A stretch of DNA of 64,000 bases from Candidatus Harrisonbacteria bacterium (GCA_016192685.1 JACPTS010000001.1:33412-97411), one strand, 5' to 3'; shown: positions 5,429 to 41,376, counted from the stretch's first letter. Notes: a model not told the origin generated them from the sequence alone. Made by a program: numbers and translations.

Positions 5429-5896
5429 TTAGAAACGCCCCATAAATAAAGCCGGGCTATTTTCCAAAAGCGAAAGCCAGGTTTGTATCGGAATAAGAAG
5501 TAAGCCGTTAGAAAACTGATTTGCTAAAAGATTTAACGGATAAAAATAGCGGTTTTCTTTCCGATTATGCGGAATAATGGAGGGGGTAAGAAAAGCGAGT
5601 AAGACGAGGCTAATAATTATTAGTAAATTTTGCGAGGCCGTAAAATTGGAAAGTACTTTTGCGGCATTAAGATGAAAATTCGCTTCGCTAAAAGGATTAC
5701 TGCCGGCCGGGCATTTTGCTCCCATCATCAAAGCAGCAATGCAACCGGAAAAATGACCTGTTCCCATATCCATTGCCAGCGCCCCCAAAACCGAAAGGCT
5801 CGCAAAACTTATAACCGCCATTAATAAAATCCATCTCATAACGCTTTTATTATAGCTCATAATATACTTAAAATAAAAGAGGCGTTGACGCCTCAA
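5429..5896 (-). CDS. hypothetical membrane protein
   Basis: hydrophobic N- and C-terminal helices; real start probably at internal Met (MSYNK or MRWIL). Confidence 0.35.
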   Translation of the reverse strand: MRRQRLFYFKYIMSYNKSVMRWILLMAVISFASLSVLGALAMDMGTGHFSGCIAALMMGAKCPAGSNPFSEANFHLNAAKVLSNFTASQNLLIIISLVLLAFLTPSIIPHNRKENRYFYPLNLLANQFSNGLLLIPIQTWLSLLENSPALFMGRF

Positions 5897-7980: not shown

Positions 7981-9603
7981 CAAAGGGCGTGATTTGGGGT
8001 AGAAATCCCCGAATCGTGCCTTCACTGGGGGCTTTTCCGAGGTTCGAATATTATTTCGAGGTTCGGAGAGCTCCAACGCATGGTTGAAAGGTTCCATGAG
8101 CAATGCACCGCTAAATATGGCGGTGTTTTGCTTTGGTTCGAATTTTTTCCATGCGGGGGTAAACTTTGCGAGTATTTCAAAGGCTTTGCTGTAACCGACG
8201 GTCAGTTCACCGTCTTTTATGGTGAGCGTTGAAAACATCAGGTTCATTAAGAGTCGTTTCTCGTCTATCGTCCGTTTCGGGTTTGAGTAAATCTCTTTGG
8301 CGCGATGCGCGAGATCAATAATACTTGCCCCTAGCTCATAGTATTTGTTACCCGCATTGTCTAGCTTCTTGAGTTCCGAAAGCACTTCCTCTTTTTCTTT
8401 GGTGTATTGATCATATTTCGTTTGATAAAATTCTGGCGTGATTTTGCCGTCAATCTTATCGTCATAAATTGCTTCAAGCCGTTTCTGCACGATCTGATAG
8501 CGGCTATTGAGGTTACTCCTAACGCCTGAACTGTAGGAAATCTCGTCAGCGTGGCTATCATTCAAGGCTTTCTTGATCCACTCAATGAGCCGTTCGTTTT
8601 TAAGGTTTATCTTCTCGAAGTACGGCATCAGGTTTTCCTCTACCTTTTCTTGGCGTATAAATTTGCGCTGGGTGCAATTGCGGTACTTATTGCAATGGCC
8701 GTACCAATGTCCTTTTTGAATTTCCCATGTAACCGATCCGCCACACTCCGAACACTTGATAAGTGCTTTGAAAAGCGGCGTGTGTTTGCGATAACGCGGT
8801 GCGCCATTTCTTTTAATTTTTACCTGTACCGCATTGAATAAGTCCTCGTTGATAAGCGGTTCATGTGCGCCTGCGTGAATTGCGCCGTTGTAGCGAATCT
8901 TGCCGATATAAAAAGGGTCTGTTAGGAGTTCGGCAACGCGGGATTTATAGACCTTGCCGCCACTCGAGCTTTTCAAACCCGCGTCATACAAAACATTCAC
9001 GATGGTCTTGGTTGAGTAATTGCCAGTTGCGTACATCTCAAACATTTTCTTTACGATATGCGCTTTCTCCTCATCGATGACATGAGTCTTGCGCCCTTTT
9101 TCTCCAATGCTCTTGTAGCCAAGCGGCGGTTTTGTCGGCAGCCATCCTTGCCGTAGTTTCTCGCCGAGCCCCTTTTTCACTTCCTCCGAAAGATTATCAA
9201 TATAGTTTTTTGCAAAAAGAATACGAATGCCCCAGTTTAGCTTTTCTTGCGATTTTGAGTTTTTGTGGAGTATCAACGAATCCTTCACGAGGTGTACTTG
9301 TCGTTCCTCATCTTCTTCGAGCCATTCATCAATCGAGACGGCGTCTTTGAAGTTACGGGTGAGACGATCCACTTTCTCGCAGATGATGACTTTGATTCCT
9401 TGCTTAGTTACATACTCCATCATCTGCCCGAAAACCTCTCGTTGTTTCTTGCCGCTTGCAGATTCAGAGATTGAAAAAACCTTGCCGATCTGGAATGTTT
9501 TCCTTTCGGCATATTCTTTGAGGAACTTCTCTTGAGCAGGCAGAGAATAGCCTGTTTCCTCTTGGTCTTTTGATGATACTCTTGCGTAAATTACGGCTTT
9601 CAT
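7942..9603 (-). CDS. large serine recombinase (integrase)
   Basis: N-terminal resolvase domain with catalytic Ser (IYARVSS), recombinase domain, zinc ribbon (CSECGG...CNKYRNC), coiled-coil; 3' end overlaps the tRNA-Asn 3' half. Confidence 0.85.
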   Translation of the reverse strand: MKAVIYARVSSKDQEETGYSLPAQEKFLKEYAERKTFQIGKVFSISESASGKKQREVFGQMMEYVTKQGIKVIICEKVDRLTRNFKDAVSIDEWLEEDEERQVHLVKDSLILHKNSKSQEKLNWGIRILFAKNYIDNLSEEVKKGLGEKLRQGWLPTKPPLGYKSIGEKGRKTHVIDEEKAHIVKKMFEMYATGNYSTKTIVNVLYDAGLKSSSGGKVYKSRVAELLTDPFYIGKIRYNGAIHAGAHEPLINEDLFNAVQVKIKRNGAPRYRKHTPLFKALIKCSECGGSVTWEIQKGHWYGHCNKYRNCTQRKFIRQEKVEENLMPYFEKINLKNERLIEWIKKALNDSHADEISYSSGVRSNLNSRYQIVQKRLEAIYDDKIDGKITPEFYQTKYDQYTKEKEEVLSELKKLDNAGNKYYELGASIIDLAHRAKEIYSNPKRTIDEKRLLMNLMFSTLTIKDGELTVGYSKAFEILAKFTPAWKKFEPKQNTAIFSGALLMEPFNHALELSEPRNNIRTSEKPPVKARFGDFYPKSRPLLREQGSNLRPSR

Positions 9604-9635
9604 TGTGGTTAGTCTGATTATAAATGGTTAACGTT

Positions 9636-9971
9636 TTATATCCAGAAATTTGGGGGAAGCCCCGCCTTGTCTGGGTATTCAAGGATTAGTTGCTTAACTT
9701 TGCGCTTTAATCCCTCAATGTCGTCCAAGACTTCGACGAGACGCCGAAACCAAGCATCGAATTCTGGTTTCTTGTCGATTTTGGCCTTGCTATCAGCGGC
9801 TATCAGATCGCAGGTGCGCCAGAGGAGTTTTGTGGTGTACGCCCTGCTTAAATGATGATCTTTTCTATCGAGTTCTTGCCACAATGCTCGTGCACTAATA
9901 TCAGGACGCTCTTTGAGTATTGTCCTTATTAGTTCTATGTGCAGGTTTTGTTTTTCTTTTGAGTATTTCAT
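9636..9971 (-). CDS. hypothetical protein (111 aa), possible small DNA-binding/directionality factor
   Basis: sits directly upstream of the integrase; basic, helical; no motif recognised. Confidence 0.3.
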   Translation of the reverse strand: MKYSKEKQNLHIELIRTILKERPDISARALWQELDRKDHHLSRAYTTKLLWRTCDLIAADSKAKIDKKPEFDAWFRRLVEVLDDIEGLKRKVKQLILEYPDKAGLPPNFWI

Positions 9972-23173: not shown

Positions 23174-23671
23174 ATGGATACAAGCAAACCGAATTTTGAG
23201 CTAATCATTGGCCTAGGAAATCCTGATAAAAAATATGAAAATACCTACCATAATGTCGGGCATCTTTTTGCAGACTACTTAAGCAGTCACATGTCACATG
23301 TCACGTGTCACATGTTAAAATCGGATGTCTACATGAACGAATCCGGAGCTTTTGTTAAAAAAATGCTTAAAAAATATGGCGCCAAACCAGAAGAGCTGCT
23401 GATTGCCCACGATGATAGTGACATTACTCTTGGAGACTATAAATTTTCTTTCGGCCGCGGAGCCGCCGGCCATCATGGCATAGAGAATATCCAAGCCGTC
23501 CTCAAAACAAAAAACTTCTGGCGGCTTCGCATTGGCATAAGACCTATAAGTCCAATAGGACTTATAAAATTAAAACGCCTCAAAGCGGGAAAATTCGTGC
23601 TTAAAAAAATCACCGCTGCCGATAAAAAAATCCTGGGAGAAATTTTTAAGCAGATAGATAGTAAACTATAA
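23174..23671 (+). CDS. pth: peptidyl-tRNA hydrolase
   Basis: LIIGLGNPDKKYENTYHNVG N-terminal signature; contains heptamer tandem repeat at 23287..23314. Confidence 0.85.
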   Translation: MDTSKPNFELIIGLGNPDKKYENTYHNVGHLFADYLSSHMSHVTCHMLKSDVYMNESGAFVKKMLKKYGAKPEELLIAHDDSDITLGDYKFSFGRGAAGHHGIENIQAVLKTKNFWRLRIGIRPISPIGLIKLKRLKAGKFVLKKITAADKKILGEIFKQIDSKL

Positions 23672-25171
23672 CTTGAAGGTAATCGTGAAGGAGACGCTCT
23701 TATCTAAATTAGCAACAATATTGGAAAGCGGCAGAGTAACGCCCCGAAAGCCTTCTTTAATCAAGGCATTTTTAAAAGCGAGAGCCGCCGCTTCGTTGTC
23801 CGCCCGGCCGCTCAATAGCGCGCTGGCCTGCTGAGAATCCATCAAAATCCGCTCCAGCGAAATGCCGCGGCCCGCCAAAACGATAATTTTAGAAAACAAC
23901 GGAGAGCGGCCAACGCTTTGTTCTTTAGCAACGGAAGCTTTATCCACTAATTGATTAAATTGCCTGGCTTTCGCCTGAAGCTCCGCCACTTCCGCTCCTC
24001 CCGGTTCTCGGACTACTACCCGCAATTGCTTCCCCAAATTAACGGAGGTTTGATAAATAACGCTGTCCGCCAAAATAAAAAGTAAAACTAAAAATCCCAG
24101 AGTGGCAATAAAAACATTACGCCAAATTTTGATAAAAAATTGAATCTGTGAATACCAGTATTCTTTTTCCGTGCCCACTGCCGTTAAACTGATTAATTTA
24201 TCCTCGGAACGCGGAATTTTTCCGCGAAGCGCGCTGCCAATAACCCCAAACCAGCCAGCCTCCAAATTCGGCAGCCCCTCCAATTTAAGATCTGCCACCT
24301 CAAATTGAAAATTTTCTTTGATAAAATTGGAAATTTCGGCATTTAAAGCCTGGGTAATTAAAATTAGCCTCCCCAGCCTCCCCTCCCAATGGCTGCCGTA
24401 AAAAGTAACCACCTTTTTAATTTCTCGGATAACGGTATCTTTAAATTCCGAAAATGGTATTTCCGAACTAAGTTCTCCGTCTGCCGGAATCAGCTTCCAG
24501 GGACTAAAGTAATGGAAATATAAATTGCCGCGGCGAAGAACCATAAAATCAATGCCGTCGCTGGCAACATTAAAAACCACCTGCGGCTTTTCAATGTCAA
24601 TTCCAACCGCCAGCGCTTGGATTGCCCGGCTGATTGCCAAAGCCGGAAACTCCACCGCTACGGCCGCGAATCCGGCCGATTCCAAACATTGCTGGTAATC
24701 ATCAATGGCGGCGCGATCGGCAAAAGCCGCCAAAACTTCCAGTTTCCCGTCTTTTTCCTGAAGGCCGATCTCCTGCCAATCGGCATATCCAGCCCCAAGA
24801 TCAATCGGAGAAATGCTTTTTAAATTCAAATTTGCCGCCTCCTCCAGGCTTTGCCCGGATAAAAGCGGCGTATTAAACACTTGAGTATAAACATTAGCCG
24901 AAGGAACGCTTAAAATAGCCAGCACTTTTTCTTTAGAACCGGCAAATTCAGCCTGCAAACGTTTTAAGCCGGCAATTAAACGGGCTTTGTCTTTAACCCG
25001 GCCGCCCCCAATAACGCCCGGCTCCAAAGTAACGGCTGCCTTTTTTAATAAGCCGTCCTGAAATTGGGCGATTCTCAAAACGGTATCTTTAATCTCCAAA
25101 CCGGCAATATTAGTTTTCGGAAAAAGCAATCCCTTGCTAAATTCTAAAAATTTTTTAAATGAAAAGACCAT
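23666..25171 (-). CDS. type IV pilus assembly PilM (actin-like ATPase) fused to PilN-like membrane/periplasmic domain
   Basis: N-terminal PilM-like domain (IAGLEIKDTVLRIAQF...), central TM helix, C-terminal PilN-like region; sits in the pilus locus. Confidence 0.55.
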   Translation of the reverse strand: MVFSFKKFLEFSKGLLFPKTNIAGLEIKDTVLRIAQFQDGLLKKAAVTLEPGVIGGGRVKDKARLIAGLKRLQAEFAGSKEKVLAILSVPSANVYTQVFNTPLLSGQSLEEAANLNLKSISPIDLGAGYADWQEIGLQEKDGKLEVLAAFADRAAIDDYQQCLESAGFAAVAVEFPALAISRAIQALAVGIDIEKPQVVFNVASDGIDFMVLRRGNLYFHYFSPWKLIPADGELSSEIPFSEFKDTVIREIKKVVTFYGSHWEGRLGRLILITQALNAEISNFIKENFQFEVADLKLEGLPNLEAGWFGVIGSALRGKIPRSEDKLISLTAVGTEKEYWYSQIQFFIKIWRNVFIATLGFLVLLFILADSVIYQTSVNLGKQLRVVVREPGGAEVAELQAKARQFNQLVDKASVAKEQSVGRSPLFSKIIVLAGRGISLERILMDSQQASALLSGRADNEAAALAFKNALIKEGFRGVTLPLSNIVANLDKSVSFTITFKL

Positions 25172-25178
25172 GAATATC

Positions 25179-25616
25179 TTATAATGATACCTCTTTTAAA
25201 GACTCTAATCTAACTTCACCGGTAGTAGAATCAACATTTAAAATTACCTCTAAACTGCGCCTTCTGGTCTGCGCCTTACCGACAGAAATTATCTTATGCT
25301 TCCCAATCGCAATACAGGGTAATTCCCGGCAGACCGAAACATCAGCGGAATAATTCCCTACCGCCAAAGTAGTGGTAGCGCTGGTATAAGTTTTATCCCT
25401 AACCAACTTCAGGATGGCATCTGCCGCGCCGGCTTTGGCCGCCAGCATCGCATCCGCGGATAATTTATTGCCAAACTCCGATTCAATAAAAATATACGAA
25501 GTAGCTGTAATCGCAATAATGATTTCCGCCACTAAACCGCCAAGAATTAAAATCGTCGGCAAAGCCGCTACTCCCTTATTTTGACACTTGATACTTGACA
25601 CTTGACACTTAAACAT
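25179..25616 (-). CDS. pilus-associated single-TM protein (PilO/minor-pilin-like?), 145 aa
   Basis: N-terminal TM helix, context between pilM/N and pilin-like genes; N-terminus encoded by heptamer repeat 25581..25608. Confidence 0.3.
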   Translation of the reverse strand: MFKCQVSSIKCQNKGVAALPTILILGGLVAEIIIAITATSYIFIESEFGNKLSADAMLAAKAGAADAILKLVRDKTYTSATTTLAVGNYSADVSVCRELPCIAIGKHKIISVGKAQTRRRSLEVILNVDSTTGEVRLESLKEVSL

Positions 25617-25618
25617 AA

Positions 25619-27445
25619 TTAACGGGACCAGTTAATAATTACGTCATCAACCCGCGGCAAACTCGCGCCAGCCGCGTCAAAAAACGCCTTATACCTGAAA
25701 TAACGCTTGTTATTATGGTCAGCCGAACGGACTTTCGCCTGAACATTCGGGCCAGCCGGCGCGTAATAACCTGCGCCAGAGCCATCGGAACCCAAATAAT
25801 TCCACGGGCCGGAACTGCTGTTGGAAGAAGCAATCTGGAATTTCACCGCCGTTCCGGACGGCTGGTTGCCCTGCCACATAATGCTATTTAAAGCCGCGCC
25901 GCCGGAAACGCCGGTATCAAACACGCTGGAAATCAAAATACAATTGCTATCGCAACTGGCCGGGATATATTCCAACCCCTGAGGATGCTTAAACTGCCCG
26001 TTACCGGTGCCGTTAGTCCCCCACTTGGTAACAAAAATCCCGAAACCGTCAAATTTCTGGACACGGTCATTATCGCCGTCGGAAACATAAATATTATTTG
26101 CCTGATCGGCAGTCACGCTTTGCGGTTTATTAAACTGCCCGTTACCGGTGCCGTTGGTTCCCCATTTCAGAAGAAAATTACCATTGGAGTCAAATTTCTG
26201 GATTCTGTCATTCCCAAGATCGGCAACAAAAATATTGTTTAAATTATCAACGCCAACGCCTTGCGGGAATTTAAACTGCCCGTTCCCGGTGCCGTTAGTT
26301 CCCCACTTCAAAAGAAAATTCCCGCTGGAGTCAAATTTCTGGACGCGGTCATTATCACGGTCAGCGACATAAACATTATTGGCGCTATCCACTGCCACAT
26401 CCTGCGGCTTTTTGAATTTTCCGTCACTGGAACCGTTAGAACCCCACTCCAGAAGAAAATTGCCGCTGGAATTGAATTTTTGAATCCGGTCATTATCTAA
26501 ATCAGCGATATAAATATTATTAGCGCTGTCTATCGCAATCCCCTGGGGATGCCCAAATTCTCCGGGGTCATTTCCGCTGGTACCCCACTTCAAAAGAAAA
26601 TTCCCGCTGGAGTCAAATTTCTGGACGCGGTCATTGTCTTTATCCGTAACATAAACATTATTCAGGCTGTCAATCGCCACTCCATACGGTTTTTTAAACT
26701 GCCCGTTACCGGTGCCGTTAGTCCCCCACTTGGTAACAAAAATCCCGAAACCGTCAAATTTCTGGACACGGTCATTATCGCGGTCAGCGACATAAATATT
26801 GACTAAATTATTAGTAACCGGCGTAATAGAGCCGGACGTGGTGGTAAAATCAACATTGGTCTGGGAAGTAAATTTATTATTTACTGAAGTTATCGGGCCT
26901 TCCTGTCCGGCGCCGCCGGACCAATCGGTCTGGCGGAAAACTTCATTTGGCCAGCGAGTTAAATAAACTTCTGACGTAACAATTGGCGAAGAACCGCTGA
27001 TTGACCAACTCGCCGCTCCGGTAATTTTTTGGGTGGAAGGGTCATCATTTAAAGCATTATAAACCGATTCAATATTGCCGCTGGCATTCCGGGAAACATT
27101 TTCAATATAAAAATAAACCGTATAAACATTGTTATTGACGTTCGTCTGCTGGTCACCGCTCTCAATCGCCAGCTGACCGGTAGAAGTGGCGACATAATAA
27201 TGATTAGCTGAACCTTTATTCAAGCCATAAAGATTTTGCCAATTCTTTCCTCCTAAAGCAGCGACATTATCAGCCATGGAATTAATCAAAGACGAAGCAA
27301 TTTCATATTGCTGGGACAGCTGGCTGGAACGGAGCACTAAAAATAAAGCTCCGGAAGCAACTCCAAGCATGGTTACGCCAACGCCTAAAGCAACGACTAG
27401 CTCAATTAAAGATTGGCCGCGAACCGAATTTCTGTCCCAAGACAT
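25619..27445 (-). CDS. pilin-like (type IV prepilin N-terminus) protein with six-bladed NHL-repeat beta-propeller
   Basis: N-terminal GQSLIELVVALGVGV prepilin-type helix; six ~47-aa NHL repeats (DRDNDRVQKFD..G.F...WGT.GTGNGQF..P.GV.VD..NN.YV.D). Confidence 0.6.
   Translation of the reverse strand: MSWDRNSVRGQSLIELVVALGVGVTMLGVASGALFLVLRSSQLSQQYEIASSLINSMADNVAALGGKNWQNLYGLNKGSANHYYVATSTGQLAIESGDQQTNVNNNVYTVYFYIENVSRNASGNIESVYNALNDDPSTQKITGAASWSISGSSPIVTSEVYLTRWPNEVFRQTDWSGGAGQEGPITSVNNKFTSQTNVDFTTTSGSITPVTNNLVNIYVADRDNDRVQKFDGFGIFVTKWGTNGTGNGQFKKPYGVAIDSLNNVYVTDKDNDRVQKFDSSGNFLLKWGTSGNDPGEFGHPQGIAIDSANNIYIADLDNDRIQKFNSSGNFLLEWGSNGSSDGKFKKPQDVAVDSANNVYVADRDNDRVQKFDSSGNFLLKWGTNGTGNGQFKFPQGVGVDNLNNIFVADLGNDRIQKFDSNGNFLLKWGTNGTGNGQFNKPQSVTADQANNIYVSDGDNDRVQKFDGFGIFVTKWGTNGTGNGQFKHPQGLEYIPASCDSNCILISSVFDTGVSGGAALNSIMWQGNQPSGTAVKFQIASSNSSSGPWNYLGSDGSGAGYYAPAGPNVQAKVRSADHNNKRYFRYKAFFDAAGASLPRVDDVIINWSR
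25960..26815. repeat. six near-identical ~141-bp tandem coding repeats (NHL units)
   Basis: first and last units nearly identical at DNA level; explains spurious plus-strand ORFs 25985..26806. Confidence 0.8.
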
Positions 27446-27462
27446 ATTTTAATTTTATCACA

Positions 27463-27705
27463 CTAAAAAGGGGCAGTCAGACTATTAAGAATTTTAGTTT
27501 TTTGCTGGGGAGTTAAAGTTTCTTTATGCTTGGCATTTAAAGTGGATAAAATCCGTGCTTTTTCCTCCGCGCTTAAAGCCGGCGGCGAAAAAACCGGACT
27601 GGTCCCGGCTGGACTTAAAAATCGGCCGCTGTTAAGCGAACTATACCAAATCAAAAACGCCAAAACCGCCACGGAAAAAATTATGATTAAATATTTATTA
27701 TTCAT
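27463..27705 (-). CDS. small membrane-anchored protein (80 aa)
   Basis: N-terminal TM helix. Confidence 0.3.
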   Translation of the reverse strand: MNNKYLIIIFSVAVLAFLIWYSSLNSGRFLSPAGTSPVFSPPALSAEEKARILSTLNAKHKETLTPQQKTKILNSLTAPF

Positions 27706-27713
27706 AATTCAAG

Positions 27714-28316
27714 TTATCGAAAGCAGGAGAACGTGCAAGAACTGAAACTTTGGGCCCGACCCTGAACCGACGCGGAATTTTGGTTCTCCACACTGCAAAC
27801 TTGGCCTGCAAAAGAGCTTGGTAGCATGATTCGCTCTCCGGCATTGCACTTGCATGTCGGATTATTATAAGGAAAATCTTCAGCCACCACTCCGCAAGTA
27901 CCGACATAAGAGCTGCTCAGCGTGGTAAGTGCCCAGGCCGCGTTGCCGTTCACGTCCGAGGCAGTCAGCACCTTGTTTGCCTCCGGGCTTCCGCCGCGGA
28001 TGCGAAGCTGGCCGTTAACGTCAAGTTTTTGCGAAGGGTCAGCCGCGCCAATGCCGACGTTGCCTGTCATCAGCAAAATAGGAGACGCATCCATCCTCAA
28101 CTTTACATACCCGCCTTGATACGCTGACAGCGAGGCATCATTTGCAACTGAATCCCATGTCAGCGAGACGCGGCCATCCACGTCTGAAGCCGTCCCTTCA
28201 CCCGAAGCAAATCCGCCTATGACAGATAACGTCCGATTTGGATTCGCCGTCCCAATGCCAACATTGCCGCTGGAAACAATTAAGCCGTTAACAGCGCCGC
28301 CGGTGTTTAAAATCAA
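27714..28316 (-). CDS. fibre-like secreted protein, paralogue A (TTG start; GNVGIGT(A/T)NP motif; Cys-rich C-terminus)
   Basis: first 23 codons and ~120 bp upstream identical to paralogue B; upstream ATG-initiated signal peptide lies in the +1 frame. Confidence 0.4.
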   Translation of the reverse strand: MILNTGGAVNGLIVSSGNVGIGTANPNRTLSVIGGFASGEGTASDVDGRVSLTWDSVANDASLSAYQGGYVKLRMDASPILLMTGNVGIGAADPSQKLDVNGQLRIRGGSPEANKVLTASDVNGNAAWALTTLSSSYVGTCGVVAEDFPYNNPTCKCNAGERIMLPSSFAGQVCSVENQNSASVQGRAQSFSSCTFSCFR

Positions 28317-28488
28317 GCCGCCAGTTTTAGACTGGCCGGTAGAGCCGGTATTAAGAGGCGCGGCCGCGTTGCCGCCGGGCGGAGCAACTATAAACCGATA
28401 GCAAAACCACTATGCTAAGAATGATGACTTTTAAGGAATCTTTAATTATGTAGGTCATAAATATCTTAATTATATCATATATTATTTC

Positions 28489-28989
28489 TCATTGGTTGCC
28501 GATCGCCATAACCGTTACCACGCCCGAGTCTAACGGATTGCCGTCATAATTGCCACAGCCGACATAGGCCTTGTCACTAGTAAAAGGATAGAAAATTGTA
28601 CCTCTACCCAGCTGAAACATGATCGAAGCTGCTGCTGTATCAGTTCTCTGGCAGGCACCCGTGACAGCGTAGTTTACATTCCCGAATGGTGTCTTCCAAT
28701 AGACCGAGTAGGAACCTGTACCCTCACGTATGACCCTGAGGACATTGAAAGATTCCCGGATGGCGCAATTAGTGCTTGGGCAGCCAGCGGACGTTCCGTC
28801 AAAGTTCACCCACGCCTTAAAGATATTCTCTTTTGTGATTGTATTCGCGGCAGGCGTAGCGGGCGCAGAGCCCGTGACCTTAACCGCGCCTGAAACCTCT
28901 AAGGCCTGAGTAGGATTTGTTGTCCCAATGCCAACATTGCCGCTGGAAACAATTAAGCCGTTAACAGCGCCGCCGGTGTTTAAAATCAA
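28489..28989 (-). CDS. fibre-like secreted protein, paralogue B (same N-terminal module, different C-terminal domain)
   Basis: as above. Confidence 0.4.
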   Translation of the reverse strand: MILNTGGAVNGLIVSSGNVGIGTTNPTQALEVSGAVKVTGSAPATPAANTITKENIFKAWVNFDGTSAGCPSTNCAIRESFNVLRVIREGTGSYSVYWKTPFGNVNYAVTGACQRTDTAAASIMFQLGRGTIFYPFTSDKAYVGCGNYDGNPLDSGVVTVMAIGNQ

Positions 28990-29165
28990 GCCGCCAGTTT
29001 TAGACTGGCCGGTAGAGCCGGTATTAAGAGGCGCGGCCGCGTTGCCGCCGGGCGGAGCAACTTGTCGGCTCTACCCAGCCGCCTTGCGCCAGCACTAAAT
29101 AAACCGATAGCAAAACCACTATGCTAAGAATGATGACTTTTAAGGAATCTTTGATAAGGTGGAAC
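28990..29165. repeat. duplicated 5' module (copy 2; copy 1 at 28317..28440) with 36-nt indel
   Basis: direct comparison of the two upstream regions. Confidence 0.8.
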
Positions 29166-29186
29166 ATAAATTTAAATAATTACTAA

Positions 29187-30695
29187 CTACCAATTCCCCT
29201 GAACACCGTACAAAACATCTTTCCAATGGACCCAGCCGACCGCCTCGGGTTCCCATGACCATCCGGAAAAATTTTTATCCGACCCAAGCTGGACGCCATA
29301 AGCATTGCTGTCTTGCGTAGTGCCATTTAAACGCAGCCATCCGCCGGACGACAAAACTTTTGCCCACCCGGTGACATTTTTCGGAAAACTGCCGGATAAT
29401 CCGCCGCTGACTCTAGCCTCGCAAGTTCCCGACGGGCAACCGCTCAAATCAGAGCTGTTAAAACTGAGCCAGCCGATATTTTCCGACCAGGCATATCCGG
29501 ACATTAAGCCGGAACCAAAATCCACACTCACCCCATAACTAACCGCGCCGCAACTGGAAGTATTGCCGCAATTAAAACTGAGCCAGCCGATATTTTCCGA
29601 CCAAGCCCAGCCGGAAACATTATAAGCAGATGGAATAACGCTTATTTCATTGCTTAAAGCACCCACCCCGACTGCATTTTCAGCCGCTACCTTATAATAG
29701 TAAGTTGTGCCATTAGTAAGTCCGCTATTAGTATAAGTCAAAACATTTCCGGCATTGGTATAAAAAGTTTCTCCGCCGGAAGATAAACCGCGATAAACTT
29801 TATAATTGGTTATTGGGGAGCCGCCACTAAAAGCCGGCGCTTGCCAGTTTAAAGTCGCTTGATTATTGCCGGCAGCGGCAGTTAAATTAACCGGCGCGTC
29901 CGGAACCGCCAGCGCGTTAACCGTTAAATTAAAATTAGCGGTTTTCACTAAAGTGCCGCTGGTAGCCGAAACAGAAATAGCGCTGGTCCCGGCCGGCGTA
30001 GAACCGGAAGTGGCAATCGTCATTTGAGAAGAGCAAGTCGGAGTGCAGCTTACCGGACTAAACAAAGCGCCCGTTCCGGCCGGTAAATTAGATACCGAAA
30101 AATCGGACGGTTGGGAAACGCCGGACAAAAGAGAAACATTTACCGCGGCATTCACTGAACCGCCCTGATAAACCGTACCCGAATTGGGCGAAAGGGAAAT
30201 AAAAAGATCCAGCGGCGGAGGCGCCACAGCCAACGATACCACCCCTTGGTTATTCAAAGTAAAATATTGCGCCGATGCTGAACCGGTTAATCCCAGAACC
30301 AGGCTATTGGCCGATGTTTCCCCGGTAACCTTAGCGAAATAAATATTCTCGGCAGTTCCCGGCGCCGGATCGGTAAATTGGATATTCGGCGGCAAGACAA
30401 TAGTTTTTACGATCGTTCCGGAAGAATAATCGGCGCCGTAAAATAGCTGATAAAAATCATTGCCGGCCGCGGAAGCATCAATATGAATTCCCCATTGCTC
30501 TCCCGATTCTTGAGTAATGGATTTTTGCTGGGCATCGCGAAGATTATTCACCAATTCTTTAGCAAAAAGATCTAATTCTTTTTCGGATTTAAATCCATAA
30601 ATATTTAAAGTCCCCACGCTCCCGAGAATGGCTAAGATTCCCATAATGACCATTGTTTCTAATAAGGTAAACCCGCGCATATTAAAATTATACAC
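29187..30695 (-). CDS. large pilin-like protein (prepilin N-terminus MRGFTLLE) with fibronectin-III domain and GW.WSENIGWLSFN repeats
   Basis: class III signal peptide-like GFTLLETMVIMGILA; FN3-like NYKVYRG...YYYKV; likely start at second Met (about 30680). Confidence 0.6.
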   Translation of the reverse strand: MYNFNMRGFTLLETMVIMGILAILGSVGTLNIYGFKSEKELDLFAKELVNNLRDAQQKSITQESGEQWGIHIDASAAGNDFYQLFYGADYSSGTIVKTIVLPPNIQFTDPAPGTAENIYFAKVTGETSANSLVLGLTGSASAQYFTLNNQGVVSLAVAPPPLDLFISLSPNSGTVYQGGSVNAAVNVSLLSGVSQPSDFSVSNLPAGTGALFSPVSCTPTCSSQMTIATSGSTPAGTSAISVSATSGTLVKTANFNLTVNALAVPDAPVNLTAAAGNNQATLNWQAPAFSGGSPITNYKVYRGLSSGGETFYTNAGNVLTYTNSGLTNGTTYYYKVAAENAVGVGALSNEISVIPSAYNVSGWAWSENIGWLSFNCGNTSSCGAVSYGVSVDFGSGLMSGYAWSENIGWLSFNSSDLSGCPSGTCEARVSGGLSGSFPKNVTGWAKVLSSGGWLRLNGTTQDSNAYGVQLGSDKNFSGWSWEPEAVGWVHWKDVLYGVQGNW

Positions 30696-30698
30696 AAT

Positions 30699-31904
30699 TT
30701 AAATTCCTCCAACTAATTGGTAAATCGGTACAATCACGGAAACCGCGATGGTGCCAATCATAACTCCGATAAAAAGAAGCAGTATCGGCTCTATGAAAGC
30801 CACCAGTACTTTTAAGGCTGAATCAACTTCTGATTCATAAAAAAGCGAAAGGGTTTTTAAAATTTCCTCAATATGGCCGGCTCTTTCGGAAACCGCGATT
30901 AAATTAGTCACCACCAGAGGAAATTCCGGCTCCCTGCGGAAAGCTTCACCGATAGTCAAACCCTTGGCAATTCCCTCCCGCGCGATTCGACGGAGACTAT
31001 CCCGCATTTTTTCCGAACCAACGGCATCAGCGGTAATTTCCAAAGACTCAATAATCGGCAGGCCGGATTTCATTAAAGAAGCAAGGGTGCTCGTAAAACG
31101 CTGGAGCGCCAATTGCTTGGAAACATTCTTAATTACCGGCAAACGGGCGCTTAAAAAGGAAAGAGTTTTTTTCCCCAAGTAAGAATTTATAAAATACCAC
31201 CCGCCTACCGCGACTGCCGCCAATAAAGGAAAAATTATCAGCGCATTGGCATTTAAAAATAAGCCGACGCCGAAAACAATCCGGGAAAAAATCGGCGGCC
31301 GGATGCCGCTGGAAATAAAAATATTGGCGATTTTCGGCAAAGCAAAAGTCACCAAAAGAATCAGCATCAAAAATGACATTACCAGCAAAATAATCGGATA
31401 GATTAACGCTCCCTGAACTTTATTCTTCAATTCTTGCTCCTTGCCGAGGGAAACGCTTAAATTATCCAGCACTTCGGTTAAATTCCCGGAGGCTTCTCCG
31501 GCCTTGATTAAATTCACAAAAGTTACGGAAAAATATTTTGGGTATTTGGCAAAAGTAGTGTAAAAAGGATTGCCCTTTTCCAGATTAGTCTTAATTTCTA
31601 TCAGCAAAGCTTTTAGAATGGGCTTGTCAAAATCATTGATTAAAATATCAATCGCCCGGAAAAGGTCGGTGCCGGCTTTCAGCATTAGCGCTAAATACCG
31701 GGATAAAAAAACTTTGTCGGAAATGGAAATAGTCTGGCCAAAAACTTTAGTGCCGCCGATATCATAAGCTTTAAGGACTTTAATAGAAACCGGCCGCCAG
31801 CCTTTACCGGCTAAAAATTGCAAGACTTCCGCCGAACCCCGCGCTTCTAGCTCTCCTTCGGTTACTCTGCCGTCTGCTTGCGATGCGATGTAGTGAAATT
31901 TCAT
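30699..31904 (-). CDS. pilC: type IV pilus assembly platform protein PilC (GspF family)
   Basis: two GspF-type repeats, 3 TM segments, 401 aa. Confidence 0.85.
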   Translation of the reverse strand: MKFHYIASQADGRVTEGELEARGSAEVLQFLAGKGWRPVSIKVLKAYDIGGTKVFGQTISISDKVFLSRYLALMLKAGTDLFRAIDILINDFDKPILKALLIEIKTNLEKGNPFYTTFAKYPKYFSVTFVNLIKAGEASGNLTEVLDNLSVSLGKEQELKNKVQGALIYPIILLVMSFLMLILLVTFALPKIANIFISSGIRPPIFSRIVFGVGLFLNANALIIFPLLAAVAVGGWYFINSYLGKKTLSFLSARLPVIKNVSKQLALQRFTSTLASLMKSGLPIIESLEITADAVGSEKMRDSLRRIAREGIAKGLTIGEAFRREPEFPLVVTNLIAVSERAGHIEEILKTLSLFYESEVDSALKVLVAFIEPILLLFIGVMIGTIAVSVIVPIYQLVGGI

Positions 31905-31905
31905 A

Positions 31906-33654
31906 TTATTCCCTGATAACTCTTAATACTTCCTCAATGGTCGTCATTCCACGCTCTACTTTCCGAAGGCCGTCTTCAAACATGGCCAGCATGCCTTTTT
32001 GGCGGGCTGATTTTCGCAATTCATCCAAAGAAAAATCAGGAGCGGCGATATATTTTCCGATTTCCTCATCAACCGAAAGCATCTCAAAAATCCCAATCCG
32101 GCCCTTTAATCCGCTCTGGCCGCAGGAACTGCAGCCTTTGCCGCGATAAAAAATTTTCGCCGGTTTGTAAACTTCTTCCAAGCCCAATTCCTTCATTTGC
32201 TTCTTAACTAATTCTAACAAATGGCTGTCCGGTTTGTAAGACTCAATGCAATGAACGCAAATTTTTCCGACTAATCTTTGAGCAATCACCAAATTCAATA
32301 CGGCAGAAATTAAAAAAGGAGGAACTTTCATATCAATAAGCCGGGGAATCGCGGTCGGGGCGTCATTAGTATGCACGGTGGAGAGGACTAAATGGCCGGT
32401 TAAAGCGGCATTAACCGAAATTTCCGCGGTCTCTTCATCTCTGATTTCTCCCACCAAAATAATATTCGGGTCCTGCCGAAGGAGCGACCGGAGAGCGCTC
32501 GCGAAAGTAATTCCCGCGGCCGGATTAATCTGGGTTTGATTTACATATTTAATGTTGTATTCCACCGGGTCCTCAACCGTCACAATGTTCACTTCCGGCT
32601 TATTTAAAGTATTCAAAACTGAATATAGCGTGGTGGTTTTGCCGGAACCGGTCGGCCCGGAAACCAGCACCATTCCAAAAGTTTTTTTGATATTGTCCTG
32701 CAAAATTTTTACGTGGTCTTCCAGCATTCCGATTTCTTCAAAAGAAGGCGGGGTTTGGCTGGCGGAAAGCAAACGCATTTCGGATTTTTCTCCGTAAAAC
32801 GTCGGGATAATAGAAACCCGGATATCAATATAATCCTTGCCTAACCGCTGGCGGAAGCGGCCGTCCTGCGGGCGATTATGTTCGTCCAGCTTAAGGCCGG
32901 CCAGCAGCTTGATGCGGGCGGTAATCGCCGGATGGACTTCTTTCGGCAAACGCATAATTTCTCTTAATACTCCGTCAATCCGATACCTTGCCAAAATTCC
33001 GTCTTCTAAAATCTCCAGATGAATATCCGAAGCCCGCAAAGAACTCGCGTAAGCGACCAAATTGTCCACTACCGCCACGATCGGCAATTCCTCCGCCGCT
33101 TCTTTTTCTCCCGAAACCCGCGAACGAAGAGACGCGGAAACATTTTCTTCAATGATGCGGCGAAAATCTTCCACTTCTCCCTTGGAATAAAGCGACAATC
33201 CAACATTTAAATCTTCTTTAGAGGCCAGATAAGGCTTGATTTCCGCGCCCAAATATCTGTGCAAAAATTCAATAATTTCCAGATTGCTCGGGTCCTCCAT
33301 TGCCACCCCGAAAGAGCCGTCTTCTTCTTTCTTAAAAACTACCGCCCTTTTTTCTTTTGATATTTCTTCCGGCAAAAGATGAAGAATCTTCTCATCCGCG
33401 GATTGAGAAAATAAATTGGCTTTGCCGACCCCGAAATACCTCGCCAGCAGCTCGTCAAGATAAGATTTGGTGATAATGCCTCGGGAAATTAAAGTTTGGG
33501 GCAAATCATGCCCTAAACGGGCCGCTTCCGCCACGACGACGTCAAAAGCTTCCGGCGCGATTAAGCCGTCACTGATTAAAGCTTCTTTTAATTTTTCGTT
33601 GGGAATCTGCATTAAAATTTTAAAGTTTGCCACCACGGCAATGCTGCCAGCCAC
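31906..33654 (-). CDS. pilB: type IV pilus assembly ATPase PilB (GspE family)
   Basis: Walker A GPTGSGKTTT, Asp box, His box, tetracysteine CVHC...CSSC. Confidence 0.9.
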   Translation of the reverse strand: MAGSIAVVANFKILMQIPNEKLKEALISDGLIAPEAFDVVVAEAARLGHDLPQTLISRGIITKSYLDELLARYFGVGKANLFSQSADEKILHLLPEEISKEKRAVVFKKEEDGSFGVAMEDPSNLEIIEFLHRYLGAEIKPYLASKEDLNVGLSLYSKGEVEDFRRIIEENVSASLRSRVSGEKEAAEELPIVAVVDNLVAYASSLRASDIHLEILEDGILARYRIDGVLREIMRLPKEVHPAITARIKLLAGLKLDEHNRPQDGRFRQRLGKDYIDIRVSIIPTFYGEKSEMRLLSASQTPPSFEEIGMLEDHVKILQDNIKKTFGMVLVSGPTGSGKTTTLYSVLNTLNKPEVNIVTVEDPVEYNIKYVNQTQINPAAGITFASALRSLLRQDPNIILVGEIRDEETAEISVNAALTGHLVLSTVHTNDAPTAIPRLIDMKVPPFLISAVLNLVIAQRLVGKICVHCIESYKPDSHLLELVKKQMKELGLEEVYKPAKIFYRGKGCSSCGQSGLKGRIGIFEMLSVDEEIGKYIAAPDFSLDELRKSARQKGMLAMFEDGLRKVERGMTTIEEVLRVIRE

Positions 33655-35950: not shown

Positions 35951-36265
35951 TTTTTAAAGAAAACTTTCTAGTTATCCCAACCTTATGCGGCCCGAATTTA
36001 ATCGGACAAGCAAATCGAGACTTGAGGCTCCTCGATCAAAACCTTTGCCTGCATTTTTCAATGCAGTATCGTACTCCATCAAATATAAATATTTGATTTT
36101 TGTTTAATTGATCCACGCACAGCTTCCGCTACGCGTGCCTTGTTACGACTTCTTCCATGTCACCGAATCTACCTTTATCCCGCCGAAGCGGAATTTCAGA
36201 TATCCCCGGCTCCCCTGAAGTGACGGGCGGTGAGTACAGGACTCGAGAACGTATTCACCGCGGCG

Positions 36266-36304
<39 letters not shown>

Positions 36305-36701
36305 GCGAGTTTCAGCCTCCAATCTGAACTGGGGCCATTTTTGATGGGATTAGCTCCGCCTTGCGGCTTGGCAACCCATTGTAATGGCCATTGTAGCACG
36401 AGTGTAGCCCAGGGCATCAGAGGGCCATGCGGATTTGACGTCATCCTCTCCTTCCTCCCCCAAAAAGAGGGCAGTCCCCGATGACACATATAACATCAGG
36501 TAAGGGTTGCGCTCGTTACCCCACTTAAGGGAACGTTTCAAAATACGAGCTGACGACAACCATGCAGCACCTGTCCAGCCGTTCCTTGAGAGAACATCCC
36601 ACGTTTCTGCGGGATTTCGTCTGGATTTCAAGCCCTGGTAAGGTTTCTCGCTTACTGTCGAATTGAACCTCATGCTCCACCGCTTGTGCGAGTCCCCGTC
36701 T

Positions 36702-36733
<32 letters not shown>

Positions 36734-37195
36734 TCCCAGGCGGCCTACTTAACGCGTTAGCTTCGCCACCCCGAGGGTCGATACTCGAGATAGCCAGTAG
36801 GCATCGTTTAGGGCGTGGACTACAAGGGTATCTACAATTTTGTTGCTTCGCAAAACTTTTATACTCGCTATGCTATTCTCGCTCATACTGCTGCGCGCTG
36901 GACAAAACTAATTCGCTCATAGCGGAAATTTATCACCCTAGTCGCATTCGCTCCTGGGTATCCCGATAAATTTCCTATTCGCTCAAAGTTTTGTAACCAT
37001 CGCTCCGCAACATTCGCTCAAACAGCATAACTCGTTTAATAATAGTTTTGCGTGACACAGACATTTCTGCTGTGTTCTCTGTGTTGCCATAGAGTTCGGA
37101 CTATATCATTCTCGCGCTTTGAAAAACGAATATCAATCATCTTGATACTCGTAGATCAAAGAGCGAGAATCGGCGTATAGTCTCTGAGGGGTTAA

Positions 37196-37450
37196 TTATT
37201 TTCCTTTTAATTTTTTGAGGTGTTTTTTCACGGTACGATCAACTAATTTAAACTCCGGTTCTTCCAAAATATCATGCGTTGTATATCCATATCTCTTACG
37301 GTCATTGGTTTTCCAAATTGCTTCAATAGACGGCAATCCTCTGCTTTTCAGTTCTTCATTCACGGTTTCTAGAACAGCTTTTAATTTCTTATTTGATTTG
37401 CTTGTGCAAACGATTTCTACAAACCTAAATTTTGAGTCAGGCCTTGACAT
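37196..37450 (-). CDS. intron-encoded small basic protein (84 aa from MSRPDSK), function unknown (no LAGLIDADG/GIY-YIG motif seen)
   Basis: preceded by a perfect Shine-Dalgarno AAGGAGGTG 7 nt upstream of ATG; embedded in the rRNA insertion. Confidence 0.35.
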   Translation of the reverse strand: MSRPDSKFRFVEIVCTSKSNKKLKAVLETVNEELKSRGLPSIEAIWKTNDRKRYGYTTHDILEEPEFKLVDRTVKKHLKKLKGK

Positions 37451-37803
37451 CGTCCACCTCCTTTTTAAATTAACTTCCCTGCTGGTTGTCCGCACCGACG
37501 CGTTTTCACCAGCGATTTGTTTTTGAAATTTCAAAAACAAATCGCTGGTAGCGTCGGATACGCCGGATTTTCCAGCATATAGCCGATTTTACATTCCAGT
37601 GTTGCCACTGAAAGGGACCATATGCGTCTCCGGAAAATTCCGGAGTCACTTCTTTATACCCTAAAGAGAGTGAGATTATTTTTGCGAACCAATAAAATTA
37701 TATTTGCTTCACTTATTTATCTATTTATCGTGCGGCAACATTTATTTTAATTTCTTGCCGAACTGCCGAGTTATCATAGAGAAACTTTATACAATCTAAA
37801 CGA

Positions 37804-37952
37804 GCTCTGCCTGTGTTTCGTGCGGCAACTACGGAGCTCCGAAATGCTTGGCTTTCGCGAAGCGAAAATTTCGGAGCGAGGCGTAGACGCGTTTCGCCGC
37901 AGGAGCGAAACGACGCCGGTGCCGTCAGAAATACAGGCGGAGCGAGTAAAAC
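37804..37952 (+). repeat. structured repeat family 1, copy 2 (inside the rRNA insertion)
   Basis: core identical to copies at 20079..20221 and 63517..63667; own terminal inverted repeat c(t/c)gcctgt(g/a)tttc. Confidence 0.6.
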
Positions 37953-38170
37953 TCATAGACAATTCGGCGGAGCGGCATTTTCAAAATGAATGCCGATGCC
38001 GGTAGACAAATAAGTGAAGCAAATGAGTTCGTAAAAATAACCGAACGATCCTTTTTGCTCCCCACGCTTTCGTGCAATGAGAGTCAGTAATGCGCCAGCC
38101 AAATGCTTTCGCCTTTGGTATTCCCCACGATATCAACGGATTTCACCCCTACACCGTGAGTTCTATTGGC

Positions 38171-38459
38171 CTCTCGCACACTCTAGACAAGTCCCCTCTG
38201 TACAAATGTTTCCACTAAATTGAAATCATTGATTTTGTATCAAGTTCAAGGCGCGAGGAGGAAATCGTAGGGTTACCTACCTTTCCGACTCGCAACGCAG
38301 AAATTGATCAAAATCAAGATTCCCGAAGGGTAAGGAAATTTTTGTCAGCTTCTTCGTTAGTCGTCGCTAGTGTATCTAAAGATACACTTCGCTCCTCCTG
38401 CCTTGAATTTAACTCAAAATTTCCTTATCAATTAGTGAAAATATTTGTACAGAGGGGAC
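38171..38459 (-). other. ~290-nt intervening sequence (IVS) in 16S helix region ~E. coli 650, bounded by a perfect 33-bp inverted repeat
   Basis: gtcccctctgtacaaatgtttccactaaattga ... tcaattagtgaaaatatttgtacagaggggac; flanks align to 16S; core homologous to 61408..61678. Confidence 0.7.
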
Positions 38460-38989
38460 AGCAGTTTTTGCTGCAGCCTCGAAGTTGAGCCCCGAGATTT
38501 AACAGCAAACTTGCTGGTCCTCCTACGCACTCTTTACGCCCAATAAATCCGGATAACGCTTGGAGCCCTCGTATTACCGCGGCTGCTGGCACGAGGTTAG
38601 CAGCTCCTTATTCCTCTGGTACTATCAGCCTTGCGGCTTTCTCCCAGAGAAAAGCAGTTTACAATCCTTAGACCTTCATCCTGCACGCGGCGTCGCTCGA
38701 TCAGGCTTTCGCCCATTGTCGAATATTCTCGACTGCTGCCACCCGTAGGTGTACGAGCCGTGTCTCAGTCTCGTCGTTGGGGAACACCCTCTCAGGCCCC
38801 CTACTGGTCATAGCCTTGGTAGGCCATTACCCTACCAACTAGCTGATCAGACCTAGGCCGCTCCCAAAGCCCCTTGCGGGTTTTAATCCGAATGTTGCAT
38901 CGGATGCTATCGGGCATTACCCCGCCTTTCGGCGAGCTGTGCCCGTCTTTAGGGTACGTACCAAGGTGTTACTAACTCGTTCGCCGCTC

Positions 38990-39075
38990 GCCTTCGGCTC
39001 GGACAAATAACTTTTAACAAATAACTAATAACGAAATTGTTAATAGTTATAAGTTATTTAGTTATTAGTCCGAGC
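38990..39075 (-). other. expanded V1 helix of 16S (~60-nt AT-rich palindromic extension)
   Basis: ggactaataactaaataacttataactattaacaatttcgttattagttatttgttaaaagttatttgtccgag between conserved GCAAGTCG and GGCGAACG. Confidence 0.5.
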
Positions 39076-39448
39076 TAAAAGCTCGCACGACTTGCATGCC
39101 TTATCCACGCCGCCAGCGTTCATCCTGGACCAGGATCAAATCCTCTAAATAAAAGTCAGTTGCACAGAACCCTCGAACGAGTTCCTAGCAACTAACCTTC
39201 GTATTGGGACAACTAGAAAATTTTCTTTTTTACTTGTAATTTTACTAAATTACTAAATTTTATATATTTAGTTATCAAGCCAGCATGTATTATCTTTAAT
39301 TAGTAAAAATAATACACCTATCTTGCGGTTCGTGGTTTTCACCGAGTCAAACTCGGCTTCACACCAGCGGCAAGATAGATGCATTTAGAACCTATCTAGT
39401 AATCTATGAAATTTTTAAATAAAAACTTATTTCATTAAGGTAGTTCTA

Positions 39449-40653: not shown

Positions 40654-41376
40654 ATGATCCAGAAGATTATCTTAGAAATCCGTGCCGGCGCCGGGGGCGA
40701 TGAAGCCTCAATTTTTGCCGGCGACCTGGCCAGAATGTACCAGCGCTACGCCGCCACTCGCGGCTGGAAATTTTCTATTTTAGATACCAGTCCCGGAACC
40801 ATCGGCGGCTATAAAACTTTTATAAGCCGGGCGGAAGGTGAAGGAATTTATGATGCCTTAAAACAAGAATCCGGAGTGCATCGGGTGCAAAGAATTCCAG
40901 CGACCGAAAAAGCCGGCCGGGTTCACACTTCCACCGCCACCGTAGCCATTCTGCCGGTGGTAGAGCCAAAAGAAGTAAATATTAACCAGGGCGACTTGGA
41001 AATTACTTTTTCCCGCGCCGGCGGCCCGGGCGGACAGAATGTAAATAAAATTGAATCCGCAGTGCGGATTTTACATAAACCCACCGGCATTGTCGTTTCC
41101 TGCCGGCAAGAGCGAAATCAGCACGCCAACCGCGAACGGGCAATGGAAGTTCTCCGCGCGAAACTTTATGAAATCCAGCAATCAAAAGAGGTTGGCGATA
41201 TTACCGCCGCCCGCCGCGAACAAGTCGGCAGTGCCGACCGCTCGGAAAAAATCCGGACTTATAATTTCCCAGACGACCGCATAACCGACCACCGATTTAA
41301 CGTTAAAGTGCATAACATAGAAAAGGTTTTGGAAGGAGATCTGGACGCGCTTTTAAAGAAAATAAATAAAATCTAG
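40654..41376 (+). CDS. class I peptide chain release factor, RF1-type (PAT motif), lacking N-terminal domain 1 (240 aa)
   Basis: GGQ motif (AGGPGGQNVNK), PAT tripeptide (RIPATEKAG), starts at the domain-2 block EIRAGAGGDEA. Confidence 0.75.
   Translation: MIQKIILEIRAGAGGDEASIFAGDLARMYQRYAATRGWKFSILDTSPGTIGGYKTFISRAEGEGIYDALKQESGVHRVQRIPATEKAGRVHTSTATVAILPVVEPKEVNINQGDLEITFSRAGGPGGQNVNKIESAVRILHKPTGIVVSCRQERNQHANRERAMEVLRAKLYEIQQSKEVGDITAARREQVGSADRSEKIRTYNFPDDRITDHRFNVKVHNIEKVLEGDLDALLKKINKI

Follow-up and report, generated by a model that had tools for sequence, protein, structure and literature searches.

The closest described counterparts of the proteins considered here are the mosaic adhesive trimer (MAT) proteins of Bdellovibrio, such as Bd2133, Bd3182, and Bd2439, which combine a signal peptide, a constant N-terminal domain, a trimeric fiber, and swappable tips, some with an S74 end, and which serve on the predator surface in prey recognition; a possible link to type IV pili has also been raised for them (Caulton et al. 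2024, PMC10769870). Here, we analyzed a 64,000-nucleotide (nt) stretch of a Candidatus Harrisonbacteria bacterium, a member of the Candidate Phyla Radiation (CPR), hereafter "the window", whose positions serve as coordinates throughout. Between 27714 and 29165, this window holds two adjacent genes for fiber-like proteins, each of which is divided between two reading frames, with the signal peptide in one frame and the body of the protein in another. Relative to their intact relatives, both genes carry one extra base in a shared 5′ module, which is best read as a lesion that is not programmed, i.e., either a real mutation spread between the copies or an assembly or curation error. Multigene surface-protein families, in which the constant 5′ part is homogenized by gene conversion and pseudogenes are frequent, offer a further point of comparison. 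The locus resembles these families in its tandem paralogues with an identical 5′ module and unrelated 3′ parts, in a lesion common to both copies, and in the sporadic 5′ lesions seen elsewhere among its relatives; unlike them, it displays no evident switching mechanism, and the window contains no intact donor copy.

The two genes lie in tandem on the minus strand, and are referred to below as copy A (28489–29167) and copy B (27714–28458). In each, an open reading frame (ORF) starting with ATG encodes a signal peptide and ends within a segment shared by the two copies, while the body goes on in the +1 frame relative to the signal-peptide frame. The parts of the two genes are as follows:

29024–29167, minus strand: 5′ ORF of copy A, 47 codons (MFHLIKDSLKVIILSIVVLLSVYLVLAQGGWVEPTSCSARRQRGRAS) from the ATG at 29167 to the TAA at 29026–29024, encoding the signal peptide and the opening residues of the conserved module (…LVLAQGGWVEPT) and continuing out of frame up to the stop
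29063–29098, minus strand: 36 nt present only in copy A in the alignment of the two copies, encoding LVLAQGGWVEPT
29062–29063, minus strand: lesion of copy A, AA against one base in relatives (CCG ACA A GTT GCT), from DNA alignments with the related loci L003 and L014–L016
28489–29070, minus strand: body frame of copy A, reading (SRQ)VAPPGGNAAAPLNTGSTGQSKTGGLILNTGGAVNGLIVSSGNVGIGT… (profile positions 34–87) and then a tail-fiber-like tip domain, with its TGA at 28491–28489
28351–28458, minus strand: 5′ ORF of copy B, 35 codons from the ATG at 28458 to the stop at 28353–28351, encoding a hydrophobic signal segment without the 36 nt, then out of frame
28389, minus strand: lesion of copy B, the same extra A, between TAT (28392–28390) and GTT (28388–28386)
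27714–28409, minus strand: body frame of copy B, with a second GNVGIG repeat after the module, a Cys-rich end, and its stop at 27716–27714
29099–29152 (copy A) and 28390–28443 (copy B), minus strand: first shared segment, 54 identical nt encoding KDSLKVIILSIVVLLSVY (repeat finder family D4 and alignment)
28922–29062 (copy A) and 28249–28389 (copy B), minus strand: second shared segment, 141 identical nt whose first base is the extra A (repeat finder family D2 and alignment)

The ATG frame of copy A encodes MFHLIKDSLKVIILSIVVLLSVYLVLAQGGWVEPTS followed by a senseless CSARRQRGRAS up to the TAA, and the product of the copy B 5′ ORF begins with MTYIIKDSLKVIILSIVVLLSVYS…. The copy A 5′ ORF is ~80–85% identical to the N-termini of its closest relatives (P0001–P0003), and the N-terminal module of the family is matched in two pieces on the same DNA, with profile positions 1–36 in the ATG frame and positions 34–87 in the +1 frame. 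Since the family profile matches across both frames, these are not chance ORFs. With the conserved motif straddling the frame change, the arrangement in both copies reads as one gene split in two, and not as a leader followed by a gene. The LVLAQGGWVEPT stretch of copy A likely holds the signal-peptidase site along with the conserved W-x-E-P-T motif.

The layout given in the first-pass annotation was borne out in full by alignment and ORF coordinates. This annotation had described identical first 23 codons from a TTG start, ~120 bp of identical upstream DNA with one 36-nt indel, unrelated C-terminal domains, and an upstream ATG-initiated signal-peptide ORF ending inside the shared segment, with the body in +1. 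We found that the two copies share 195 identical bases in all (54 + 141 nt), interrupted by the 36-nt indel, and that their C-terminal parts are unrelated past this segment; the 23 codons after the TTG specify the same residues in both copies, the 23rd being synonymous only (ACA/ACG). The earliest ATG, GTG, or TTG of the copy A body frame is the TTG at 28989, and the copy B body frame is, as also described earlier, open for 31 codons upstream of its TTG at 28316 (from 28409) with no ATG therein. The NCBI annotation of copy B is a 200-amino-acid (aa) product called from this TTG (MBI3045984.1, HYY86_00355, on a 608,392-bp contig). Both body frames are open, over 190 codons in copy A and 224 codons in copy B, with no second lesion.

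To place this split among relatives, a protein search was run with the frames joined, which returned 162 relatives at E ≤ 1e-3, the best 120 of which were read, and JGI metagenomes were scanned with an alignment of the module, from which 80 loci were kept and the module profile then run on all stop-to-stop fragments. On this evidence, copies A and B are tandem paralogues in a large, widespread, and uncharacterized CPR (Parcubacteria) family of putatively secreted, fiber-like proteins, whose members follow a common plan of a Sec-type signal peptide, a ~55-aa constant module, one or more GNVGIGT-type repeats, and a variable C-terminal tip. The putative signal peptide, identified by inspection, has a charged n-region and a hydrophobic core, with an AxA-like site preceding W/F-x-E-P, and it is this part that is out of frame in the window. 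The module consensus in relatives reads W/F-x-E-P-T/S-x-x-P-P-x-G-N-x-x-A-P-L-N-x-G-x-x-G-Q-x-K-x-G-G-L-I-L-N-T-G-G-A-x-N-G-L-I-V-x-x-G-N-V-G-I-G-T. In nearly all of the best 120 of 162 relatives, a single ORF includes the charged N-terminus, the hydrophobic stretch, the AxA-like site, and the module; in these proteins, as in the syntenic relative described below, signal peptide and body thus share one frame (…WVEPTVAPPGGN…). Only three of these 120 (P0105, P0116, and P0118) were seen to start inside the module, and signal peptide and module share a frame in essentially all of the ~105 module copies from the 80 JGI loci, the exception being L078 (which carries the P0118 lesion discussed below). 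The frame arrangement of the window, for which a search among relatives had been proposed in the first-pass annotation, was therefore looked for and not found in the syntenic locus, in nearly all of the best 120 of 162 proteins, or among the ~105 module copies.

The syntenic locus (L003), from a related genome, is 77–89% identical to the window at the nucleotide level across aligned genes and has a single continuous gene (P0001) in place of copies A and B. At the lesion site, L003 and L016 read GAG CCG ACA CTG GCG CCG, L014 reads CCG ACT GTG GCG, and L015 reads CCG ACC GTG GCG, where the window reads GAG CCG ACA A GTT GCT CCG, with one extra base relative to all four; across all comparisons, this base is missing from about 200 relatives. 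The closest relatives (P0001–P0006) also have the KDSLKVIILS…LVLAQGGWVEPT signal region. Copy B is 51% identical to P0001 over 140 aa, a likeness reaching beyond the module, which suggests that copy B is probably the orthologue of P0001 and copy A an added paralogue with a different tip.

Two other family members are also disrupted at their 5′ end, differently in kind and place. In P0118, the frame breaks inside the signal peptide, within a ATATTTTTATT tract (a T-run): the ATG frame closes after 15 codons, and the body is read in a different one (L010:370–520). Because the same sequence is found in four assemblies (L010–L012 from ENA and L078 from JGI), this lesion is probably real in its population. 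In P0105 (L013:150–300), an ATA stands where the otherwise matching L040 and L042 have an ATG start, which may be either a lost start or an unusual one. These lesions fit sporadic damage in a fast-evolving multigene family rather than a conserved recoding site. Near-identical 5′ modules between tandem paralogues are likewise seen in relatives, over 295 nt at 99.3% identity in L060, 228 nt at 96.9% in L061, and 345 nt at 89.6% in L035. Family members often occur in tandem arrays of two or three (L060, at 2210 and 3596, L061, L035, L045, L053, L057, and L074), with 5′ modules 72–99% identical at the nucleotide level and different 3′ parts, and the shared stretch of L060 begins ~30 nt upstream of the start codon. 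This array pattern suggests concerted evolution of the constant part along with tip swapping.

On balance, we lean towards a real, non-programmed mutation in the shared 5′ module, present in both copies by way of duplication or gene conversion. One extra nucleotide in this module would have separated the frame of the ATG and signal peptide from that of the body, and duplication or gene conversion, which would keep the module identical, would have placed the mutation in both copies. Copy B would additionally have lost 12 codons, including the cleavage site and the W-x-E-P-T motif, and since this motif is conserved in nearly all relatives, its absence points to real decay of that copy. As neither copy, as encoded, could make a secreted fiber, both would be recent pseudogenes. 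The split, the extra base, the intact relatives, and the lack of frameshift signals are seen directly; the presence of this base in the organism itself and the absence of any product are our inferences. A real lesion is favored because the assembly is accurate elsewhere: over flanks of 6.7, 4.4, and 1.5 kb (12.5 kb), the window is 100% identical to Logan contigs from several sequencing runs, and the neighboring genes have the same lengths as their counterparts in L003. It is also favored because natural 5′ lesions occur elsewhere in the family (P0118 and P0105).

Several observations weigh against this preference. No independent assembly spans the lesion, as every Logan contig stops at the repeat, and the only database product of the region is the 200-aa call of the metagenome-assembled genome itself (MBI3045984.1). 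Exact-product look-ups covered the NHL pilin, PilC, the 80-aa ORF, both body ORFs, the 47-aa leader, and a partial copy A product; exact look-ups of the hypothetical repaired proteins gave no match, nor did a 38-nt exact DNA pattern in JGI metagenomes, and the source genome is absent from the GTDB representatives. Along their 190 and 224 codons, both body frames are still uninterrupted and free of a second lesion, so that any inactivation would have to be very recent. Finally, the extra base falls exactly at the repeat-unit boundary in both copies, which is what an off-by-one join would give, and independent mutations at that place would be unlikely.

This boundary placement speaks for an artefact of assembly or curation, which we regard as less likely than a real mutation. 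Here, the organism would have an intact copy A (CCG ACA GTT GCT). The extra A, with which the shared 141-nt unit begins in copies A and B alike, would stem from joining this unit to its unique flanks or from a minority variant used for both copies, since assemblers keep a single sequence per repeat; the deletion in copy B, of 35 nt, may then be genuine. One such deletion is indeed enough to derive copy B from an intact ancestor, from which copy A departs only in the base at the join, and the completely open downstream frames would be expected as well. Logan assemblies at k = 31 break at the repeat, with two contigs (L004 and L005) starting at window position 28278, 30 nt inside it, while another (L001) ends at a different repeat; since short-k assemblies break exactly here, the 608-kb contig must have needed some repeat resolution. 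However, De Bruijn assemblers join unitigs by exact overlap and seldom create 1-nt indels, the remainder of the window perfectly matches the Logan assemblies of several runs, no other gene is split within the 12 kb comparable with L003, and natural 5′ lesions are present in other family members.

Occurrence in both copies does not decide between a real mutation and an artefact. The first-pass annotation took it as an argument against a sequencing error, and this argument fails: the lesion belongs to a 141-nt unit identical in both copies, which is one unit for gene conversion and for the assembler alike, so that the two copies should not be counted as independent witnesses. Its further option, an assembly artefact spread by gene conversion, survives in the form of an artefact or lesion copied from one copy to the other. 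A practical caution follows, namely that a lesion present in two repeat copies does not amount to two observations. Reads would be decisive. Copy A reading CCGACAGTTGCT at 29040–29090, with a single A, would indicate an artefact and an intact copy A, and a junction read as CCGACAAGTTGCT would count against an artefact. More generally, between the read states CCGACAAGTTGC and CCGACAGTTGC, and GTTTATAGTTGC, a single A in copy A would point to an artefact, AA in nearly every read to a real lesion, and a mixture to a population polymorphism. Runs containing the same organism include SRR12113418, SRR12113401, and SRR4343430, plus 15 others sharing contig L004.

If the extra base is real, both fiber genes might nevertheless be expressed through recoding. 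A programmed +1 ribosomal frameshift at A-AGU-U, with Thr or Tyr and then Val being read, would restore …EPT-V-APPGGN… and yield a secreted fiber at some efficiency. Skipping one base at ACA-A-GUU recreates exactly the EPTVAPPGGN of P0002 and P0003, and both body frames are intact. The heptamers of the window (ACA-AGU-U in copy A and UAU-AGU-U in copy B) are superficially similar to GCG-AGU-U, reportedly the site of yeast Ty3, which is the one formal resemblance of this kind. Programmed frameshifting, an option raised in the first-pass annotation, is contradicted by the relatives, whose start and signal peptide are normal and lie in the frame of the body; the split is not conserved in any of them, syntenic orthologue included (L003, L014–L016, nearly all of the best 120 of 162 proteins, and the module copies of the 80 loci). 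Nor does the site carry frameshift signals. The overlap zone of copy A reads GTA GAG CCG ACA AGT TGC TCC GCC CGG CGG CAA CGC GGC CGC GCC TCT TAA, throughout which, by inspection, no 0-frame codon is able to re-pair in the +1 frame, and there is no slippery codon, rare codon, or in-frame stop at the shift point. The conserved motif changes frame 11 codons before the 0-frame stop is reached, so that a shift at this stop would destroy the motif. AGT is not rare in the window ORFs (121 of 14,149 codons, or 8.6 per 1000), in-frame AGT-T occurs 51 times in 35 ORFs, and an A inserted before any GTT yields an AGT-T string by itself. The RNA downstream folds no better than shuffled sequence (z = −1.4), with a main stem that uses the 36 nt copy B is without, and an Rfam search of the site gave no match even at E ≤ 1. 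As the sequence upstream of the shift also differs between the copies, with ACA (A) or TAT (B) as the P-site codon, no stimulatory element is common to both.

With a prfB-type +1 frameshift (CUU UGA C with an upstream Shine-Dalgarno-like element), the locus has only the geometry in common, a short 5′ ORF followed by a +1 body. Copies A and B differ from prfB in that their shift point offers neither a slippery codon nor a stop or rare codon, an upstream stimulator common to both is missing, and the relatives do not conserve the arrangement. A literature search on CPR and programmed frameshifting found nothing of relevance. We therefore consider programmed frameshifting very improbable, and hold in equally little credence its bolder form, in which a real extra base would be passed by a Ty3-like +1 shift at A-AGU-U without tRNA slippage, keeping both fiber genes low and tunable. 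Were this true, gene conversion would spread a "dimmer" among the paralogues of a host-attachment fiber family in an episymbiotic CPR bacterium. A peptide spanning …WVEPTVAPPGGNAAAPLNTGSTGQSK, if made, would reveal either recoding or an intact allele.

The genes might instead be expressed as they stand, with the leader ORF translated and the body started separately, by coupling or re-initiation, at the TTG codons (28989 and 28316), giving non-secreted products of 166 and 200 aa. No possible start precedes this TTG in the body frame, it follows the leader stop by 34 nt, and the 200-aa product is the one called by NCBI. However, this TTG falls midway through the conserved module (GGL-ILNTGG), so that a product started there would be without a signal peptide and without half of the constant module that every relative keeps; no Shine-Dalgarno-like sequence precedes this TTG by inspection, none of the relatives seen starts there, and a surface-fiber family has no evident cytoplasmic role. 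We consider this reading improbable, and both genes are better annotated as frameshifted than as a 200-aa TTG-start protein.

Around the 5′ end proper, a TATAAT box is found 10–14 nt upstream of the signal-peptide ATG in copy B (28460–28480) and in the L003 orthologue (5765–5790), with no Shine-Dalgarno-like sequence by inspection between box and ATG in either; this arrangement could mean that the transcript is leaderless, beginning at the signal-peptide ATG, or that its leader is very short.

The cassette system also raised in the first-pass annotation holds in part: a constant 5′ module is indeed combined with variable tips, in tandem paralogues that recur among relatives, but shufflon-type inverted repeats and a recombinase were not found. 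A shufflon or other invertible cassette was rejected, as both genes are on the same strand in direct repeats, with only weak and scattered inverted matches, and no recombinase domain was detected among the ORFs scanned around the locus. One distant relative (P0050) does have a Shufflon_N match.

The fiber genes are embedded in a type IV pilus operon, between PilB/PilC/pilin and NHL-pilin/PilM, as follows:

29187–33654, minus strand: upstream context, with PilB (31906–33654), PilC (30699–31904), and a prepilin-type protein with fn3 (29187–30695), from Pfam matches to T2SSE, T2SSF, and N_methyl plus fn3
23666–27705, minus strand: downstream context, with an 80-aa ORF (27463–27705), a prepilin-type NHL beta-propeller protein (25619–27445), a 145-aa ORF, and PilM (23666–25171), from Pfam matches

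This placement is kept in L003, where the order is PilB, PilC, fn3-pilin, fiber gene, small ORF, NHL-pilin, an Avd-like gene, and PilM. The L003 gene between NHL pilin and PilM (8976–9755) encodes 259 aa with Avd-like domains (PF22296 bAvd and PF05635), and its place in the window is taken by the 145-aa ORF (25179–25616), which has no Pfam match. Avd-like proteins are an accessory protein type of diversity-generating retroelements. Both pilin-like genes contain repeats, the NHL gene five tandem 141-nt units corresponding to propeller blades (25989–26803), and the fn3 gene a 44-nt direct repeat encoding WSENIGWLSFN (29458–29615), at which short-k assemblies break.

Elsewhere in the window, a short peptide chain release factor gene (40654–41376, plus strand; 240 aa) was considered as a second frameshift, and hence as a proxy for assembly quality, and was rejected: it is matched by Pfam PCRF only from profile position 101, lacks the N-terminal domain 1, and starts directly after rpmE (L31), with no frameshifted upstream piece seen. 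The 16S rRNA gene (36101–39151, minus strand) is interrupted, with Rfam SSU matches at 36101–36924 and 37940–39151 separated by a ~1015-nt insertion that holds a 114-aa ORF (37196–37540, minus strand); there is no 23S rRNA within the window.

Beyond the lesion, the question is what these proteins might do when intact. Neither repaired protein belongs to a Pfam or NCBIfam family. In PHROG, the copy A tip matches a tail fiber (phrog_11355, E = 2e-10), and the repeats match phrog_9942 and phrog_3269 (overall range 2e-10 to 1e-5). A sequence search of the PDB with the copy A body returned the Bdellovibrio MAT fiber Bd2133 (8OND, E = 5e-9), and also 8OL4, through an sGNvGIGTxxPtxxLeV repeat. These matches make "fiber protein", the name given in the first-pass annotation, a reasonable one. 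An AF2 monomer model of the copy A body was too poor to use (pLDDT 52). Among relatives, several tips carry PF13884 (Peptidase_S74), while others are collagen, H-lectin, or Gly-rich.

The likeness to MAT proteins extends to the signal peptide, the constant N-terminal part, a fiber built of repeats, a swappable C-terminal tip, S74 in some relatives (cf. the S74 MAT subgroup), and many paralogues per genome. Unlike MAT proteins, the CPR proteins have a constant module of ~55 aa with W-x-E-P-T…GGLILNTGG, compared with a beta-rich MAT N-terminal domain of ~130 aa (the MAT chains in the PDB are without that domain), are ~170–400 aa long rather than ~1000 aa, belong to CPR hosts, and lie in a type IV pilus operon. 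Phage tail fibers or tail spikes (phrog_11355, phrog_9942, and phrog_3269) are similar in their GNVGIGT-type repeats, in the copy A tip, and in the logic of a constant base with a variable tip, but the locus differs from them in having no phage context, pilus and housekeeping flanks, and a Sec signal peptide. Our literature searches on the GNVGIGT motif and on CPR with pili and tail fibers found nothing. With the repeat and tip features of MAT proteins present, we take the family to work like a MAT or tail-fiber adhesin, and it may belong to the MAT superfamily.

Overall, the frameshift itself is minor, adding one more disrupted gene, or else an assembly error, to a fast-evolving family of surface proteins. 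Of more interest is the surrounding, very large and unnamed CPR family, which resembles the MAT fibers used by Bdellovibrio in prey recognition and whose members may plausibly be host-attachment determinants of these episymbiotic bacteria.

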